Virus record (IMG/VR): IMGVR_UViG_2061766007_000510
DNA: 18,416 bases
Reading direction: 5' to 3' (one strand)
From: an uncultured virus (IMG/VR IMGVR_UViG_2061766007_000510)
Taxonomy: Duplodnaviria; Heunggongvirae; Uroviricota; Caudoviricetes
Positions 2,351 to 17,437 of this stretch are shown one piece after another. The position numbers and the translations under genes were made by a program. The notes under the pieces were generated by a model. That model was given only the letters and a program-made list of their open reading frames with translations, did no database searches and had not been told where the DNA came from. Position 1 is the first letter of the stretch. Every line of letters starts with the position of its first letter.

Positions 2351-2410
2351 CTGAGGAGACACCGTGGAGTCTGAAGACCCCGGGACTGGACAGGATGGAA
2401 CCGGCGCTGT

Positions 2411-2458
2411 CCACCGGGTGAGAATGTGGGGCATGCCGGGGTGCACCGGTGGCTGATA
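2411..2458 (+). repeat. Degenerate plus-oriented copy of the 48-bp element
   Basis: CCACCGGGTGAGAATGTGGGGCATGCCGGGGTGCACCGGTGGCTGATA, upstream of plus-strand gene 2517. Confidence 0.85.
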
Positions 2459-2516
2459 GGGAGAATGCAAAAGGCTATGTCCAACCAAAATGTTGCTAAA
2501 GCAACGAAGGAGATAA

Positions 2517-2864
2517 ATGATGCTGGCAAAATACATTATTCGAGGAAACAAGAGAAAAAACGCACTTGATGATGAAAAATGGATGAACAAGTGGTTCGCC
2601 GTACATTATAAAAATGCTACGGTTGAGTTCAAGCGAGACTATTATACGAAATATGATGCCCAATATCTTACCGATGCCGGGATGAAATTGCTGTGCAAGA
2701 AAATAGAAAAGGAACTTCCGTTCTATGATGAAATTGACCGAATTGCGGAAGAATACGCCAGTGGCGAACCGGAGGATATTCCTACGTTGGATGATTTGGT
2801 TGATATGGAAGCGAGAAACATTCTTGTAAGTTTTTTCAAATGCCCGGAGCACGATTGGTTTTAG
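2517..2864 (+). CDS. Hypothetical protein (115 aa), AT-richer than its neighbours
   Basis: AAGGAG RBS; ORF track. Confidence 0.8.
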   Translation: MMLAKYIIRGNKRKNALDDEKWMNKWFAVHYKNATVEFKRDYYTKYDAQYLTDAGMKLLCKKIEKELPFYDEIDRIAEEYASGEPEDIPTLDDLVDMEARNILVSFFKCPEHDWF

Positions 2865-2910
2865 CACCACTTTGGGTAGACATAGCCATGCAAAAAGCAA
2901 GGAGACAACT

Positions 2911-3066
2911 ATGGCACGATACGAAATCCCGGTTTCAGTGAACGTTGAGTTCACCATCACGGTAGAGGCTTCCTCGAAGGCCGAGGCAAGGGAAATCGCC
3001 GAGGAAAGGGCTTACACCGAGTACCTGACGGCGGACCCGGACGAACTCAACGCGGTGGCCATGTAG
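2911..3066 (+). CDS. Small acidic protein, DpnD/PcfM-like pattern (paralog of 4410-4589)
   Basis: AAGGAG RBS; YEIPVSVNVEFTITVEASSKAEAREIA. Family resemblance judged by eye only. Confidence 0.75.
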   Translation: MARYEIPVSVNVEFTITVEASSKAEAREIAEERAYTEYLTADPDELNAVAM

Positions 3067-3067
3067 C

Positions 3068-3115
3068 CCACCGGGTACGGACGGGGGGCACGCCGGGATG
3101 CACCGGTAGCGTATA
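3068..3115 (+). repeat. Plus-oriented copy of the 48-bp element
   Basis: CCACCGGGTACGGACGGGGGGCACGCCGGGATGCACCGGTAGCGTATA, 1 nt after the TAG at 3066 and 32 nt before the ATG at 3147. Confidence 0.95.
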
Positions 3116-3146
3116 TCCGTGACGAACCTTAAACCAGGAGACTGCT

Positions 3147-3562
3147 ATGAAGAACTTTGACCCCAAGACCACCCTCGCCGCCGCCAAGCCCGAAGAAATC
3201 CGCGACTGGGCTATCGCCTGTCTCGAGAAGAAACTCGCCGCCTGTGTCGAAGACACCACCAAGCGCTTCGCCGCGTGGAAGGACGAGGAAATCAAGGCCG
3301 CGCTCGGCAAGCGCGACCAGAAGAAGCTCGCGGACGGCAAACTCACTATCGAGGACGCCCGCGATATTCTCGTCCAGAAGGACTGCAAGGGCGACATCGC
3401 GGACAACGAGAAGGCCATTGCCGACATCAAGGCCGCCTTCTCGAGGGAACTTCCCAAGACTATCCACATCGACGTGGAATGGAAGAGGAGCGCCACCTGG
3501 GGCTTCAACCCGAAGGCCGACGTCTGGGCCGACGGCTACTCTGCTTCCGAGTTCATCGGCGG
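3147..3562 (+). CDS. Hypothetical protein, 3' end lost in gap
   Basis: AGGAG RBS; strong GC3 codon bias up to the gap. Confidence 0.85.
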
Positions 3563-3572
3563 NNNNNNNNNN

Positions 3573-3671
3573 TTCCTCGATACTTTCCACGGTGGCGACC
3601 TTAGGGTCTTCCGAGCCCCAGCCGCCACGGTAGCGCACCTTGCTGCCGACCTTGATTACCTTGCTGCTCAT
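3573..3671 (-). CDS. 5' fragment of a small phage-type protein (MSSKVIKVGSKVRYRGGWGSEDPKVATVESIEE)
   Basis: ATGA overlap with the upstream gene's stop; SH3-like KVGSKVRY start; runs into the gap. Confidence 0.7.
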
Positions 3672-4776: not shown

Positions 4777-5604
4777 CTATTCAATGCAGTTGAGGGTGTC
4801 AATGATGAAGTTCAGTTTGTCCTTCGTGAAAGTCCACGTGTAGTTTTCACTCTTGGCTCCGATGTTCTGATGGGCGGGAGTTCCCCATTTTTCCGTGAGG
4901 AAGTCAATGACGCGCTTGGGGGTGAACGCGGAAAACCTGATTTTGAGTGCGTCAGTCCACTTCTTCACCTCGCCACCGAGGCCGACATTGTTGAATCCCG
5001 TCCAAACGATGCAGTACGCATCGTCAATCCAATAGAAACCGAACACGCGCACCTTGTTTGCGTGTATCTTATCCCATCCCGAGTTAGTCGGATAGTCGCG
5101 GGAAAAATCGAAATTTCCGTCAAAGCAAAGGCGCTTGTTCAGTTTCAGGATGGCGTTGTTCAGGCGGTCGGTGTCCACCATGTTGAACATGATATGCAGT
5201 TCCTTGCCGTTCTCATCAAAGATGCGCCCGTCCTTCTTGATGTAGACGCGCTTTCCGTAGAACATGGCGCGGGCCACGTACCCGTCCCTCTCGTAGCGTT
5301 CCACGCTCTCAATGCTGATGAGACCGATGACGCAGGATGGCAGGAACTCGCATACCTCGCTATACTTGGCGAAGTTGCTGATGCCCGTGAAACGCATCTC
5401 GGTGTCCTTCTTCTCGTTCTCGGGGCCCTTCGTGATGATGGCACCATCGTTGGTGCGCTCAATCTCATGGAACCACACGTCACTGATGAGGTGCCCGTCC
5501 GCGTCCATGAGGTTCCAAAGGGTGTCTTCCCTCTTGGCAACCTTGATGTATTCCTTGTCAAAGGGGAGGATGGTGGTGATTTCGTTCAGTTGTGTCTTTT
5601 TCAT
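4777..5604 (-). CDS. Hypothetical protein (275 aa)
   Basis: GGAG RBS; longest gene of the array. The N-terminal WNLMDADGHLISDVWF resembles WG-repeat-like motifs (by eye). Confidence 0.85.
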   Translation of the reverse strand: MKKTQLNEITTILPFDKEYIKVAKREDTLWNLMDADGHLISDVWFHEIERTNDGAIITKGPENEKKDTEMRFTGISNFAKYSEVCEFLPSCVIGLISIESVERYERDGYVARAMFYGKRVYIKKDGRIFDENGKELHIMFNMVDTDRLNNAILKLNKRLCFDGNFDFSRDYPTNSGWDKIHANKVRVFGFYWIDDAYCIVWTGFNNVGLGGEVKKWTDALKIRFSAFTPKRVIDFLTEKWGTPAHQNIGAKSENYTWTFTKDKLNFIIDTLNCIE

Positions 5605-10692: not shown

Positions 10693-11001
10693 CTAGCCGA
10701 CAAGGGCCTTGTACTTGGCGAGCACCTGCTCCTGCACGTACTCGTAGAGAGTCCGGTCGGTGGGTTCCACTATGCTCTTGAAGTTCTCCCCCTTGTAGAA
10801 GGGGTCGAGCGGGTAGGAAACGAAAAATTCCCCCTCGTTATTCTCCATGATGCGGATGCCGCGGACGACAATCGCGTTATTGAAAGTAATCTGGGCGAGG
10901 CCGCGCAGGTGGCCGAGGTTCACTCCCTCCTTGAAGGGAAAAATCTTGATGTCCGTCAGTTCAAGACCGCAGACGCCCGTAGTGTTCTTTTCTTCTGCCA
11001 T
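10693..11001 (-). CDS. spoVG: SpoVG family nucleic-acid-binding protein (102 aa)
   Basis: LTDIKIFP...LRGLAQITFNNAIVVRGIRIMENNEGEFFVSYP...FKSIVEP...VLAKY is the typical SpoVG pattern; AAGGAG RBS. Confidence 0.88.
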   Translation of the reverse strand: MAEEKNTTGVCGLELTDIKIFPFKEGVNLGHLRGLAQITFNNAIVVRGIRIMENNEGEFFVSYPLDPFYKGENFKSIVEPTDRTLYEYVQEQVLAKYKALVG

Positions 11002-11194
11002 AGCAAACTCCTTTTCGTTGGCAAAGAATATATCCGCCACCCGAACGCCCCGGCGTGCCCCCCGTCCTCTCCCGGTGGACAAATAAAAAAATTCCTGGGA
11101 CGCCGCGGCGGCTGCCAGGCTGTCCCGGGNNNNNNNNNNNNNNNNNNNNNNCCCGCCTTGCGGCAGGGACTCCCTTGTGGGGCGAAAGGAAATG

Positions 11195-11575: not shown

Positions 11576-11738
11576 ATCACACCTTCCTTTCGCTCGCTCG
11601 GGCAACATCGCCCTCGCAAGTACCCTATACGCTACCCGAGCCCTCCGGCTTTCCCCCCGTCCTAGTCCGGTGGAGGGCAGAAAAAAATCCTGTCCGGTCC
11701 CTGAGCCTCGGCAGTCCTCCCGCGGCAGTGAACGGGAA

Positions 11739-11764
11739 GAGCCCCCGCCTTGCGGCAGGGGCTC
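11739..11764 (-). repeat. Repeated 3' GCAA-tetraloop hairpin (other copies 11152-11172, 13910-13934, 14303-14327)
   Basis: GAGCCCCTGCC-GCAA-GGCGGGGGCT, 12-23 nt after stop codons; no T-tract in the three complete copies. Confidence 0.8.
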
Positions 11765-11780
11765 TCGCTCTCCTTCTAGT

Positions 11781-12532: not shown

Positions 12533-13061
12533 TGTGGTCGATGACGGGAATTTTCATAATTTTCCCTGCGGCACAGATAACGCTAGTGATGGCAAAGTCT
12601 TCCTCGCTCGGCTCGGAGTTGCCGCTCGGGTGGTTGTGTGCGAGCATGATGCTGACCGCGTTGTCCATCAGGGCGGCACGGAACACCTCACGGGGTGCTG
12701 CGGGGGTTTGGTTGACGAGCCCGACCGTGATGTCGTGGCGGTTGATGATGTGGTTTGCAGCGTCGAGCGTGAGCACGACGAAGTTCTCCTGACACGCAAA
12801 CTTGAGGTCGCAGAGCCTCGGCAGAGCGTCTTCCGGATTTACCACCGATTTCGCCTCGGTGCCGACCACGTAATGGGCGGAGAGTTCACAGCAGGCGATA
12901 ATCTTCTCCGCGGTCGATTCCCCGATGCCCCTGAAGTTCATCAGACGCTCCTTGCTCGGGATGGCGGTGCAGGTTGCGAGGTAGTCGCACACGCGACGGG
13001 CGAGGTCAGCGTCGCCCAATATGGCTGCGAAGAGCCGTTCTGTTGTCTGAGAGTTTTCCAT
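12533..13061 (-). CDS. radC: RadC-like JAB/MPN domain protein; C-terminus in gap
   Basis: HhH-like RGIGESTA, then QENFVVLTLD...PREVFRAAL...AHNHPSGNSEPSEED...PVIDH. Confidence 0.93.
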
Positions 13062-13187
13062 CGTATTGCCTCCGATATACCTATACGCCACCGGGGAGCT
13101 CCGGCTTGCCCCCCGTCCTATTCCGGTGGGGAGAGGTCGGTGCCCGCCGCCCTGGACAGGGACCGTGCTGACGTCGGGCAGTCCCCG

Positions 13188-13220
13188 TAAAAGAGAAACT
13201 CCGGCATTGCCTGCCGGAGT
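13188..13220 (-). terminator. Intrinsic terminator
   Basis: ACTCCGGCA-GGCAA-TGCCGGAGT followed by TTCTCTTTT. Confidence 0.75.
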
Positions 13221-13242
13221 CTTCAGTGTCGACAAAAAATTT

Positions 13243-13335
13243 CTATCCGTGGTATCCCCCGATGCGACCGAATTCGCAGGGTGCAATGGTTGGATGACGA
13301 TAGAGCATTCCTGACGGCTGGGTTAATTTATTCAT
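13243..13335 (-). CDS. 30-aa peptide MNKLTQPSGMLYRHPTIAPCEFGRIGGYHG
   Basis: Found manually: AAGGAG RBS, its own repeat copy at 13396 and a terminator downstream. Confidence 0.6.
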   Translation of the reverse strand: MNKLTQPSGMLYRHPTIAPCEFGRIGGYHG

Positions 13336-13462
13336 TTGGCTTGTCTCCTTTTAGTTGGTTTTGTTTTGGTGTCCGCCACTCGGCGGCTCACCGGATATAT
13401 TCTACCGGAGCACTCCGGCATGCCCCCCGTCCGCTTCCGGTGGGGGCACCGGCGTGCACGGG

Positions 13463-13783
13463 CTAGGCTTCAGGTCCCTCGCATGGTTCGAGCTTTGCAG
13501 AGTAGTCCCCGAGCGACAGCAGCACGAAGGACTCTCCCGAGTCCGGCTCGGTCAGCCTCAGCAGGTGGTGACCGCTCGCATAGTAGTCCACGCAGTCGTC
13601 GTCTTCCTCGTCGTACCCGTCGTCGAGTTTGACCGTGATGGCACACTCCGCACCGTCATCCCACAGCACGAGCGGGTATACGCACATACGCTCGTCCGGT
13701 TCGATTTTGTCCAACGCCTCGGTGAGGGCGTCCATGTCATAGGTAATCTTGTACCCGCCGAAAAAGATTTCCTTTGTTTCCAT
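13463..13783 (-). CDS. Extremely acidic protein (106 aa)
   Basis: LDDGYDEEDDD; follows a repeat plus family A leader. Confidence 0.85.
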   Translation of the reverse strand: METKEIFFGGYKITYDMDALTEALDKIEPDERMCVYPLVLWDDGAECAITVKLDDGYDEEDDDCVDYYASGHHLLRLTEPDSGESFVLLSLGDYSAKLEPCEGPEA

Positions 13784-13946
13784 TCTGTTGCCTGCCTTGT
13801 TGCTGGGCGGACACCCGCCCTACGTTCTCCCTATCAGCCACCGGGACATCCCGGCTTGCCCCCCGTCCGCCTCCGGTGGGAGCAGCCGGAACGCCCGCAG
13901 GGAGCAGGAAGCCCCCGCCTTGCGGCAGGGGCTCATCGGTAGGGGT

Positions 13947-14150
13947 CTAGTGGCGGAAGTCAGCCCAACACGTAGCACCGGAGCAGGCGGTCAGTTCCTC
14001 GGGCACGTCAATGCCCTTGTCCTTGAAAAATTTTACCGCCTCGTCAAAGTCCTCGGGATATTCTCCCTTGATGAGGCGGAGGGTGTTCTCGAGTTGGCGA
14101 CGGTTCGGGTTGCGGATGCCCTTGACAAATTTTTCCACACTTGGCGACAT
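13947..14150 (-). CDS. Hypothetical protein (67 aa)
   Basis: AAAGGA RBS; repeat plus family A leader; GCAA hairpin at the 3' end. Confidence 0.8.
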   Translation of the reverse strand: MSPSVEKFVKGIRNPNRRQLENTLRLIKGEYPEDFDEAVKFFKDKGIDVPEELTACSGATCWADFRH

Positions 14151-14350
14151 ATTCAGTCCTTTTCAATGGGCGGACACCCGCCCGACATTCTCCCTATCAG
14201 CCACCCGCCCGCTCCGGCTTGCCCCCCGTCCGCCTCCGGTGGATGACGCCCGGTGCCAGCCGGCAGCCTCCTGGAGCCCGCCGGCAGCCTCCTGATGCAG
14301 GAAGCCCCCGCCTTGCGGCAGGGGCTCCTCGGTTGGGCGGGGTGGAAACG

Positions 14351-14584
14351 CTACGGGAGGTTCTCGATACCCTCGATGTACCAAATCCGCTCGCAAGAGA
14401 GGTCGATACTCAGAAAGACCGTAAACTCCACACGCTCGCCCTTCGGGAAGATGAGCGGGTAGAGGGCGACCACCTTCGCCTTGGCGGTCGCATAGTCGGG
14501 GTCGGACACCTCGAACGCGGTATGGTTGATGTAAGATTTGTCAGTTCCGATATAGTTGTCGGCTTTGATGCTAAAACGTACCAT
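14351..14584 (-). CDS. Hypothetical protein (77 aa)
   Basis: AAAGGCAGG RBS; repeat plus family A leader. Confidence 0.8.
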   Translation of the reverse strand: MVRFSIKADNYIGTDKSYINHTAFEVSDPDYATAKAKVVALYPLIFPKGERVEFTVFLSIDLSCERIWYIEGIENLP

Positions 14585-14837
14585 AGTACCCTGCCTTTCA
14601 TTGGACGGACGCCCGCCTGCAAATATAATATCCTCTACCCGAGCCCTCCGGCTTTCCCCCCGTCCTTATCCGGTGGGAAATGCCCGCCACCAGCACGCAG
14701 CCACGGGACCGGACGACCCCGCTCAGGAAAGAAAAAATTTTCAGGCTGCCGAATACCCCCCGTCCTATTCCGGTGGGATATGCCGGAACACCCCGGGAGG
14801 CACCTGGATGCCTCCGGTAGCAGTGCCTTAGGGCAAG

Positions 14838-14869
14838 AAAAAAAGAAAGCCACCCTCTCGGGGTGGCTT
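14838..14869 (-). terminator. Intrinsic terminator
   Basis: AAGCCACCC-loop-GGGTGGCTT followed by TCTTTTTTT. Confidence 0.8.
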
Positions 14870-14887
14870 GTGGTCTAGGCTCCCGTC

Positions 14888-15187
14888 CTATTCGTTGGTC
14901 GGGGTATCGTGGTCTTCGTCTTCCGGCTCATCGTCTTCCCCGTCTTCCGGCTCGTCCTCTTCCGGCTCGTCATAGTGGTGGATGACCACCACCCCGACAC
15001 CGCCCGAGCGACCGAACGCGATGCGGAGCACGCCCGCGATGAACGCCACGAGGACAACGCCCCAAGCCACCCCGAGCTCGATGAGGGAGCCCACGTCTGT
15101 GGTCTTCCCGAGAGCGAACAGAGCCGTTTCGGCAACAAGGGCAACGGTAAAGGCAGAGAGAATAGCAACGCAAAGAACTTTTTTCAT
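14888..15187 (-). CDS. Two-TM membrane protein with acidic DEPE-repeat tail (99 aa)
   Basis: AILSAFTVALVAE...IELGVAW; tail DEPEEDEPEDGEDDEPEDED. Confidence 0.85.
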   Translation of the reverse strand: MKKVLCVAILSAFTVALVAETALFALGKTTDVGSLIELGVAWGVVLVAFIAGVLRIAFGRSGGVGVVVIHHYDEPEEDEPEDGEDDEPEDEDHDTPTNE

Positions 15188-15468
15188 AGTATACCACCTT
15201 TCGCTATCGCAGGTTTCAAGGGCAACCTGCACCGCCCGTCTACATCTACCCTATCCGCTACCCGAACGCTCCGGCTTGCCCCCCGTCCTTTCCCGGTGGT
15301 ATCCCCGGGATTCCCCCGGAGGCTGCCAGTAGGTCCCGGGAGATGCCGCTGGGGTGACCTTAGTGCTCGCTTGTGCAGTGGAGCATTCCCCCCGTCCGCA
15401 TCCGGTGGACAATAAAAAAATCCGCGGCCGCCTCCAGTCCCAGACATCGCCGCGAGGCTTCGGGAAAT

Positions 15469-15656
15469 AAAAAAATCCGGCTTCCCCGAAGGTCTGCCGG
15501 ACTAGTCAAGGTTAATCACTCCTTCGGGGCTTTGCCCCGCGGCACTGACCCGTGCCGCCCTCCGTCTCGTGGATAGGTACGTGAACCGCTATGCCTAGTA
15601 GTCCAAGTCACTTTTGACTTCCGGCTGACCTACCGGAGCGGTGGCGAACCCCCGCA
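15469..15656 (-). ncRNA. Candidate structured non-coding RNA (~190 nt)
   Basis: Starts just downstream of the repeat at 15664; at least six hairpins, long-range pairing, terminator with T7; no credible RBS-led ORF. Confidence 0.65.
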
Positions 15657-16245
15657 TATACCCTATACGCTACCCGAGCCCTCCGGCTTGCCCCCCGTCC
15701 TAGTCCGGTGGTATCGCACCGCCCACGCCGGTCCATCAGGATGCCGAGGCGGGCCGCCCCCGGTGGCTCCTCGGTGCACACCCGAGCACTACCGGCATGC
15801 CCCACGTCCGTCTCCGGTGGAAGGCTGACCCGCCCGCGGCCGTCGAATCGCCAGCCAGTGGATGCTTCCAGCGTCGTACTGGTGACAGCAGGCCTCCCGT
15901 CCCACCCCGGTGGTATCGCGGGGAACTCCCGGAGGCTGCCACGGTGGTCCCGGGGAACTGCTCGCAGGAAAAAACTTCCACGCCTTAGCCATGCACCACA
16001 ACACAATAAATAATACAGCAACTTTGCACTGAGCCGTCAACCCCCGAGCACATAAAAAATTGTAAATTTCGCATTACATTCTTTTCCCAATGCCTCCCGT
16101 CCCGTTCCGGTGGAATACGCCGGAAACCCCCGGACGCCGCAGGGAGACATCCGGGGAGTTCGTTAAAAAAAATTGCCGGGACATCTACGANNNNNNNNNN
16201 CCTTCCAAACGGAAGAGGGCCCGGCCTAAGCCGAGCCCCCAAGAG

Positions 16246-16362
16246 TTAGCCCTTATGGGCTTTCTGCTCATCCTCCTCCTGCTTGAGGTCGGCATCCGTC
16301 TTGTGGAAGCCGAGCATCAGCATCGGGAGCAGGAGCAGAGGTATGAGCGTCAACGCTAGCAT
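16246..16362 (-). CDS. 38-aa single-TM peptide MLALTLIPLLLLPMLMLGFHKTDADLKQEEDEQKAHKG
   Basis: Found manually: GGGAG RBS; repeat plus family A leader at 45-nt spacing. Confidence 0.7.
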   Translation of the reverse strand: MLALTLIPLLLLPMLMLGFHKTDADLKQEEDEQKAHKG

Positions 16363-16629
16363 ACGCATCTCCCTGCCTATGGACGGACACCCGCCCGCAA
16401 AAATCTTATCCGCTACCGGAACACTCCGGCTTGCCCCCCGTCCGCATCCGGTGGCAGCACGTCAGCACGCGGCCGTCGACAGCGGGCCGCCAGCCTCGTC
16501 GACAGCATCCCAGAGCCCTCCCGCAAGCCCCCCGTCCTTCTCCGGTGGGTAGCACCCGAAGCCCCCCGGGAGGTCCCGGGAGCATGTCGTCGAGAAACGG
16601 GAAAGGGAGCATTCCGCCCCCCGAGTCCG

Positions 16630-17226: not shown

Positions 17227-17437
17227 AAGACCCTGCCTTTTTCCGAGGGGCACCATCGCCCCGCATATACCCTATACGCTACCCGAGCCCTCCGGCTTGC
17301 CCCCCGTCNNNNNNNNNNNNNNNNNNNNNNNNNNNNNNNNNNNNNNNNNNNNNNNNNNNNNNNNNNNNNNNNNNNNNNNNNNNNNNNNNNNNNNNNNNNN
17401 NNNNNNNNNNNNNNNNNNNNNNNNNNNNNNNNNNNNN

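Follow-up and report, generated by a model that had tools for sequence, protein, structure and literature searches.

A gene-less cassette in a repeat-organised array of a cattle-gut mobile element, and the small RNA that it may encode

Almost every full copy of a GC-rich repeat in a stretch of DNA from an uncultured virus leads into a gene; what, then, is the role of the one copy that does not? The stretch, called here the window, is the 18,416 nucleotides (nt) of IMG/VR record IMGVR_UViG_2061766007_000510, assigned to the Caudoviricetes, and the copy lies at 15711-15660 on its minus strand. A first-pass annotation, made from the letters alone, had noted that this copy is followed by a highly structured segment of about 190 nt (15660-15469) in place of a gene, and had proposed that the segment encodes a non-coding RNA (ncRNA) of the element. 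In the analysis described here the anatomical oddity is confirmed and a new small RNA is a plausible reading of it, with an architecture that differs from the long junction stem originally drawn.

The window has about 57% G+C and carries about 35 small genes, almost all on the minus strand. The dominant feature of its non-coding DNA is the repeat, which is about 55 nt long and consists of two boxes. On the gene strand, box A reads CCACCGG-N4-GGACGGGGGG and box B reads CAAGCCGG-N4-6-CCGG-TAGCG-nATA. A regular expression finds 43 copies of box A, to which a half-masked copy at 17309 can be added (about 44 in 18 kb), and by tally from our tables 34 of the copies are full repeats with both boxes. 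Within the full copies the ATA is invariant, and 18 of them have TAnnnT at the aligned position. Most copies contain a CCGG-N4-6-CCGG dyad; its centre is often mismatched (CCGGAG...CTCGGG), and no U-run follows it.

A Shine-Dalgarno (SD) sequence and the start of an open reading frame (ORF) of at least 30 residues follow 20-115 nt downstream in 33 of the 34 full copies (further minus-strand examples are 4056-4003, 9502-9449, 13879-13826 and 15299-15246), and the sole exception is 15711-15660, as the first-pass annotation had remarked. Two copies are inverted, at 2411-2461 and 3068-3118 on the plus strand, and these precede plus-strand ORFs at 2517 and 3147. The repeat is thus tied to the 5' ends of genes in an orientation-dependent manner, and behaves as a promoter and leader cassette. 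A leader hairpin, GGRCGG-GYGU-CCGYCC, is present in seven cassettes and begins 6-7 nt past the TAnnnT-like hexamer of the repeat, which is the place where a transcript start would be expected. Terminators with U-runs stand behind many genes of the array.

The exceptional copy is followed by a series of predicted hairpins and two terminator-like structures. The features of the cassette, all on the minus strand, are as follows.

15691-15711, minus: box A, CCACCGG-ACTA-GGACGGGGGG, the upstream half of the repeat module (regular expression and alignment of 43 copies)
15660-15690, minus: box B, CAAGCCGG-AGGGCT-CGGG dyad, TAGCG and the invariant ATA within TAGGGT (15665-15660); putative promoter core (from the sequence)
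15638-15655, minus: H1, leader hairpin GCGGGG-GUUCG-CC(A)CCGC with loop GUUCG (fold and sequence)
15620-15637, minus: H2, hairpin UCCGGU-AGGUCA-GCCGGA, 6 bp including one G.U, with a hexaloop (H2+H3, -12.6 kcal/mol)
15606-15619, minus: H3, hairpin AGUCA-AAAG-UGACU, 5 bp (fold)
15583-15604, minus: H4, local hairpin GGACUACUA-GGCA-UAGCGGUUC, which competes with the proposed long stem (pair probability 0.77-0.83)
15559-15577, minus: H5, weak hairpin CC..UCC-ACGAGAC-GGAGG (pair probability 0.59 in the reference, 0.17 in a natural variant)
15558-15539, minus: H6, perfect hairpin GCGGCAC-GGGUCA-GUGCCGC (pair probability 0.95-0.98 for H6/H7)
15538-15526, minus: H7, perfect hairpin GGGGC-AAA-GCCCC, adjoining H6 (H6+H7, -23.6 kcal/mol)
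15502-15525, minus: predicted single-stranded linker of about 24 nt, GAAGGAGUGAUUAACCUUGACUAG (sequence and local-hairpin model)
15469-15501, minus: T1, intrinsic terminator with stem UCCGGC/GCCGGA, inner C(UUCG)G and U7 at 15475-15469 (terminator scan, -15 kcal/mol)
15414-15454, minus: T2, hairpin CGCGGC...GCCGCG with U7 behind it, which may serve as a back-up terminator (identified by its stem and U-run only)

The local minus-strand hairpins named in the first-pass annotation can all be read in the sequence, the ends of H1 and H3 being shifted slightly to those given above. H1 is a generic 5' hairpin of a type also found on many mRNAs of the array, and the 50-nt module with the start of the leader, up to 15650, matches the cassette of another gene (gene 17226) letter for letter. 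The UUCG terminator is likewise where it had been placed: the terminator scan lists 15490-15476, and the full hairpin extends over 15501-15476 before running into U7, the form of an intrinsic terminator. The linker carries an SD-like AAGGAG together with UGACU words complementary to the GUCA loops, and the word CUAGUCCG (15505-15498) overlaps the foot of T1. H2 and T1 have a GCCGGA arm in common, and in the minimum free energy (MFE) fold of the full stretch the 5' arm of H2 pairs with the 3' arm of T1.

No coding signal was found in any of the six frames. Each frame contains 1-5 stops across the stretch, and the ten listed substitutions of a natural variant (see below) alter 5-8 of the 8-9 codons that they affect. 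A conserved translated ORF over this span, one of the observations that the first-pass annotation had named as refuting its proposal, finds no support here.

Folding statistics were obtained against 200 shuffles, the check that had been suggested for the locus. The whole 192 nt folds with -80.4 kcal/mol, a z score of -3.63 that none of the 200 shuffles equals. The same is true of the two hairpin pairs, H2+H3 (15637-15606, z -4.21, 0/200) and H6+H7 (15558-15526, z -4.66, 0/200). T1 has z -3.0, with 2/200 shuffles as good, and H4 has z -2.27, while T2 (z -0.6) is no better than shuffles. Among the 32 minus-strand GGTCA sites of the window, the loops of H2 and H6 have the longest flanking stems, of 6 and 7 bp; block shuffles give a mean of 0.91 GGTCA sites with a stem of at least 5.

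The first-pass annotation had enclosed much of the segment in a long interrupted stem (GGACUA/UAGUCC, GGUU/AACC, CAC/GUG, CCU/AGG). The words do exist, but the model is not supported: its energy is -56.6 kcal/mol, against -70.2 for a model containing local hairpins only and -80.4 for the MFE, and the outer part of the stem has an ensemble probability of about zero. Natural variation is informative here. It was taken from contigs of four other gut-metagenome runs over 14880-16190; two of these (X4 and X8) have no contig over 15452-15627, and this was not counted as absence. In run X3 a 337-nt contig spanning 15364-15700 departs from the window at 13 positions; 10 of these differences are listed, and 6 fall inside the putative RNA (about 97% identity). 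The contig of run X5, which belongs to another study than X3, covers 15514-15678 with zero differences. In X3, three adjacent changes and one further change fall on both arms of H4, turning U.G into C-G, A.C into G-C and G.U into G-C and breaking one C-G. Their effect is to improve the energy of H4 from -4.9 to -9.3 kcal/mol, and the same four changes cost the long-stem model four pairs (-56.6 to -48.9). A fifth change converts a U-A of H5 to U.G. Four of the five stem changes thus leave the pairing of the local model intact or strengthen it, and one breaks a pair. The natural variation fits local hairpins and speaks against the long stem.

On the basis of the oriented repeat, the shared 50-nt module, the lack of any coding signal and the terminator, we hypothesise that positions ~15653-15469 of the minus strand are a discrete and functional small RNA of about 185 nt, encoded by the element. 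We are evenly divided on whether this is correct. An ncRNA unit equipped with the repeat and terminator of the array is the best supported part of the original proposal; nothing in the analysis supports the sponge, decoy or anti-defence roles attached to it, and any such role is a guess. In the unit as we envisage it, the repeat module would act as promoter, read by a dedicated factor or polymerase of the element. Transcription would begin a few bases after the invariant ATA, giving a 5' end near 15653 which the 5' hairpin would then cap, and T1 would end the RNA. What follows is guesswork: the product could work in trans as a stable protein-binding RNA, with the twin RGGUCA hexaloop hairpins as binding sites. 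The linker, being exposed, might bind protein as well, or its UGACU words could dock on the hexaloops. The partner might be an RNA-binding protein of the element, such as the SpoVG homologue at 10693-11001, or a host protein. A bolder version can be imagined, in which the array is a new promoter-per-gene system with its own transcription machinery, carrying both RNA and protein as cargo, and the RNA is an anti-defence decoy, either a mimic of a guide scaffold by way of its nexus-like word and terminator hairpin, or a set of RGGUCA hairpins that titrate a host immune or regulatory protein. We consider this unlikely.

A number of observations weigh against the small RNA. By folding alone, the locus and the strand do not stand out: a sliding scan that took in 190 windows of 180 nt placed the stretch 6th (z -3.8; mean -0.8, sd 1.3), and the plus strand, at -74 kcal/mol and z -3.28, comes close to the minus strand. 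Other intergenic stretches are equal or better, with 13976-13797 reaching z -6.7. The strand assignment therefore comes from the orientation of the repeat upstream and of the U-run terminators downstream. The promoter role of the repeat is itself conjectural: no copy is among the nine sigma-70-like sites of a promoter scan, the repeat having no sigma-70 -35/-10 elements, and no TTGACA-like hexamer was seen 16-19 nt upstream of its TAnnnT in the aligned copies. It is for this reason that an element-specific factor or polymerase is proposed. The two hexaloop hairpins are present as described in the first-pass annotation, but the motif is not strictly kept, because the sixth X3 change turns the H6 loop from GGGUCA into GAGUCA. 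Moreover, the X3 pattern comes from a single diverged copy with mostly transitions, none of them compensated on both sides; it is not statistically significant and amounts to no covariation test. Antisense targets in the window are limited to five overlapping 10-mers, with a longest run of 12 nt within the RadC gene, which we judge to be chance, and the linker has no matching target elsewhere in the window. Nor could the RNA be assigned to a family, which the first-pass annotation had also been unable to do. Rfam 15 (4227 models, including riboswitches, leaders, tracrRNA, 6S, pRNA and tmRNA) gives no match at the gathering threshold over the whole window; with permissive filters 15400-15720 matches only a eukaryotic lncRNA model (E 7.6), and a permissive search of 15150-16300 gives the RNA no match with an E value of 10 or below. 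ARAGORN finds 0 tRNA or tmRNA genes in the window. Finally, none of the 20 public runs that contain part of 12540-16190 is on record as an RNA-type run.

Several of these observations would suit a rival explanation, namely that this is an empty or decayed cassette in which promoter-leader and terminator modules have been joined by recombination between repeats, leaving about 130 nt of non-functional GC-rich spacer. The folding of that spacer would then reflect only the hairpin-prone nature of intergenic DNA in this element, or the segment would serve solely in cis, as an insulator of transcription. Its 5' 50 nt are the shared module, terminators with U-runs are common in the array, and folding of equal or greater strength is seen in other intergenic stretches. 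The surroundings are also what might be expected: 16245-15188 is 1,058 nt without a convincing gene, containing many partial repeat copies and non-coding units of 72-90 nt. Contigs from the four other runs break and rejoin at repeats, giving mosaic junctions; repeats break assemblies as well, so that this is not proof of shuffling. Recombination between repeats should, however, delete whole cassettes and not leave behind a 130-nt body, and this body has neither a paralogue nor any similarity elsewhere in the window. Its adjacent perfect hairpins and matched hexaloop hairpins beat all 200 shuffles, and 97-100% identity is retained in samples of two other studies. The neighbouring non-coding units of about 110 nt (described below) are on a par with shuffles in their folding (z -0.4 and +0.3), so that a tendency to form hairpins is not general to spacers. 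Taking both sides together we think an empty cassette rather unlikely, while regarding it as a serious competitor to the small RNA. It is improbable that the segment is a cis-acting leader or attenuator, in which transcription from 15711 is stopped or let through at T1 and T2 to tune the membrane-protein gene 15187-14888. The tandem terminators do lie 230-290 nt upstream of that gene, and the GCCGGA arm common to H2 and T1 means that alternative pairings exist; but the gene has a full repeat of its own (15299-15246) and its own leader hairpin, a box A copy and a 110-nt unit intervene, and no riboswitch or leader family matches.

A more specific proposal is that the RNA mimics a CRISPR guide, as an RNA anti-CRISPR whose 3' part imitates tracrRNA (anti-repeat, nexus-like word and terminator hairpin), with 15587-15575 as the repeat. 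The word CUAGUCCG, directly ahead of the terminator hairpin, presumably matches the conserved nexus of S. pyogenes tracrRNA, and 15587-15575 can pair with 15523-15510 in three short blocks. There are reported precedents for such molecules in rAcrIIA1 and the Racrs (bioRxiv 10.64898/2026.06.03.729762; PMC10651486). Against this, no Rfam model, that of tracrRNA included, reaches E 10 on the stretch. The duplex amounts to 10 pairs, split into blocks of 4, 3 and 3, which falls short of a long repeat:anti-repeat, and it competes with H4; its outer continuation has an ensemble probability of about zero, one of its pairs is lost in the natural variant, and a model containing it is 14 kcal/mol worse than local hairpins. 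The 8-nt match was found post hoc and is weak. We therefore regard guide mimicry as very unlikely, and hold an equally low opinion of the idea that the segment acts as folded single-stranded DNA (ssDNA), for example as a single-strand origin or ssDNA promoter in the leading region of a conjugative element, or as a site for replication or packaging. RadC, small acidic ORFans and the use of one strand do resemble conjugative leading regions as these are described in PMC11541004, and both strands fold well. But 15400-15720 contains no sigma-70 hexamers that a hairpin could rebuild, as would be looked for in an Frpo or sso element; iterons and an AT-rich unwinding region are both lacking; the cumulative GC skew does not turn here; and a promoter-like repeat on one side with oriented U-run terminators on the other suits an RNA unit better. 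Least probable of all, in our view, is a very small protein. There are two candidate frames. The only ATG near the 5' end, at 15657, opens 19 codons, and a TTG frame of 49 codons (15509-15360) has a strong SD-like AAGGAG 9 nt ahead of its TTG. However, the ATG belongs to the shared module, the same letters standing before gene 17226, whose true start is 50 nt further down; the TTG frame passes through both terminators and both U-runs; and the substitutions show no synonymous bias in any frame.

The closest known architecture for the array is that of the PeSL (promoter-early stem-loop) cassettes of the T4-type phages RB49 and phi1. PeSLs are reported to be a motif of promoter plus stem-loop that stands before small orphan genes and serves as a joint for shuffling, with promoter and terminator activity measured (PMC2839356; see also PMC4122927). 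Like PeSL, the array has a conserved composite intergenic motif, tens of bases long, before many small ORFans, oriented with the gene and ending in an SD sequence and start (in 33 of 34 cases); it has a G/C-rich dyad in the repeat; and it has identical modules on different cargos together with mosaic junctions in other samples, which would fit repeat-mediated shuffling. PeSLs differ in that they contain a consensus sigma-70 promoter and lie in AT-rich DNA, where the array's repeat has no sigma-70 -35/-10. The repeat is also GC-rich, its conserved core is longer, at about 55 nt, and its upstream half, box A, is separable and occurs alone as well. In addition, the cargo of the 15711 cassette would be an RNA and not an ORF.

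Three classes of RNA offer further comparisons. The phage small RNA rAcrIIA1 reportedly copies the whole single-guide RNA of Cas9 (bioRxiv 10.64898/2026.06.03.729762), and Racrs are described as RNA anti-CRISPRs that mimic CRISPR repeats (PMC10651486). The putative RNA resembles these in being a small structured ncRNA with its own promoter, intergenic among accessory genes and ending in a hairpin. It differs in that they show clear homology to the CRISPR repeats or tracrRNA of the host, where here the resemblance is limited to one 8-nt word. Bacteria and phages also have a general class of trans-acting small RNAs that end in a Rho-independent terminator. The length of about 185 nt, the separate promoter, the 5' hairpin, the exposed linker and the terminator with its long U-run would place the RNA in this class; unlike its members, it has no complementary target of at least 13 nt in the window, no known chaperone and no assigned family. 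The phi29-type pRNA is a phage-encoded structured RNA that carries two complementary loops and is transcribed from an early promoter bordering the early genes. The two RNAs are similar in length, both structured, and each would have two functionally matched loops, but here the loops are alike and not complementary, no Rfam pRNA match is obtained at E 10, and no packaging genes are seen in the window.

Other identities considered for the repeat found no support. The attC sites of integrons carry an inverse core and a core, RYYYAAC ... GTTRRRY, at the ends of a palindrome, and the conserved columns of the 43 aligned copies contain no such core sites. A CRISPR-like repeat or a T7-type promoter is unsupported, ATAGGGAGA being present in some copies only. 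A sigma-70-like pair upstream of the cassette, at 16040-16010, was also set aside, as it has a 19-nt spacer and is absent from the scan list.

The array contains other conserved non-coding parts. The GGRCGG-GYGU-CCGYCC leader hairpins lie at approximately 13820-13805, 14183-14168, 16830-16815, 16395-16380, 12118-12103 and 18353-18338 on the minus strand, and their G.U pairs are found on the sense strand only. Four different genes have one conserved hairpin module, which reads GAGCCCCTGCCGCAAGGCGGGGGCT on the gene strand, behind their stop codons (14297-14337, 13904-13944, 11734-11774 and 11142-11182, in plus coordinates), and the 3' ends of cassettes are thus modular too. Box A occurs alone ten times, often at the head of non-coding units of 72-90 nt. 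Units with box A only are found on the minus strand at 16548-16455, 15913-15821, 15820-15712, 12369-12276, 12275-12178 and 14776-14677, and those at 16548 and 15913 have GGCTGGCG…TCGACGGCCGCG in common. A longer conserved non-coding unit of about 110 nt, also headed by box A and containing …CACUGCACAAGCGAGCACUAAGGUCA…GGCAGCCUCCGGG…, is present at 18075-17965 and 15408-15300, and in part at 15960-15892 (minus strand). The units lie immediately upstream of the full repeats of genes 17852 and 15187, and include another GGUCA word.

The only domains that Pfam identifies in the window are a RadC-like JAB domain (12533-13061, E 2e-31) and, at 10693-11001, a SpoVG domain (E 3e-15), with hints below threshold of DUF4314 and DUF7336; the remaining genes are orphans. 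Two pairs of cassettes are paralogous. The pair 9989-9435 and 9432-8698 (minus) have in common a leader and the N-terminus MSIPKNT.NQEQI, and the pair 15187-14888 and 10378-10178 (minus) encode small membrane proteins behind a common leader hairpin (…GCAGGTTGCCC…GAAACCTGC…). The two inverted repeat copies lie in an island of lower G+C (0.49) at 2400-3560 (plus), whose plus-strand ORFs, 2517-2864 and 3147 onward, converge on a minus-strand gene starting at 3671, the junction being covered by a masked run (3563-3572). One gene, 7610-7356 (minus), has no repeat. It stands behind an AT-rich stretch with a strong terminator (7739-7718) before it, and sigma-70-like pairs TTTACA-17-GATAAT and TTTCCA-17-TATAAT are present upstream of it at 7670-7636 (minus).

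Searches for the array elsewhere were largely negative. The repeat core was not found as an array in IMG/VR, the GTDB representatives (one genome per species) or JGI metagenomes: scans with the exact pattern gave 0, 59 and 74 loci respectively, and a looser pattern gave 74 loci in IMG/VR, in each case single matches that we take as chance. The H6/H7 pattern has 0 loci in IMG/VR. A nucleotide search of the whole window against plasmid and phage records gave no match, nor did 15200-15900 against phage records in distant mode. The 20 public runs containing part of 12540-16190 come from 10 studies and carry the label bovine gut or gut metagenome. More than 90% of the words of this region are present in two runs from a single sample, which may be the source. 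The largest orphan protein, a 275-residue ORFan at 4777-5604 (minus), has 45 homologues at 43-100% identity, some of them on contigs of 200-455 kb, while tblastn against plasmids and phages found no match for it. Its relatives in IMG/VR (L134:10001-10795 and L135:10001-10792) are 57% identical. L134 is AT-rich, tightly packed DNA with clamp-loader and homing-endonuclease genes; it does not have the repeat, and neither locus yielded a homologue of the RNA. The clamp loader beside the L134 relative and the family members on 200-455 kb contigs do no more than hint at a large phage as against a conjugative element. A large phage, of which the window would be the accessory or early region, is the most likely identity of this cattle-gut mobile element.

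If the 15711 cassette does encode a small RNA, it would found a new RNA family, and it would mean that promoter cassettes which shuffle orphan genes can carry RNA genes as well. In gut phages and plasmids, RNA-based molecules of counter-defence or regulation might then be sought in such arrays. The repeat system is at least as noteworthy as the RNA, and may matter more. It would provide a handle for finding the transcription factor or polymerase of the element, and a means to trace the exchange of cassettes between rumen elements.

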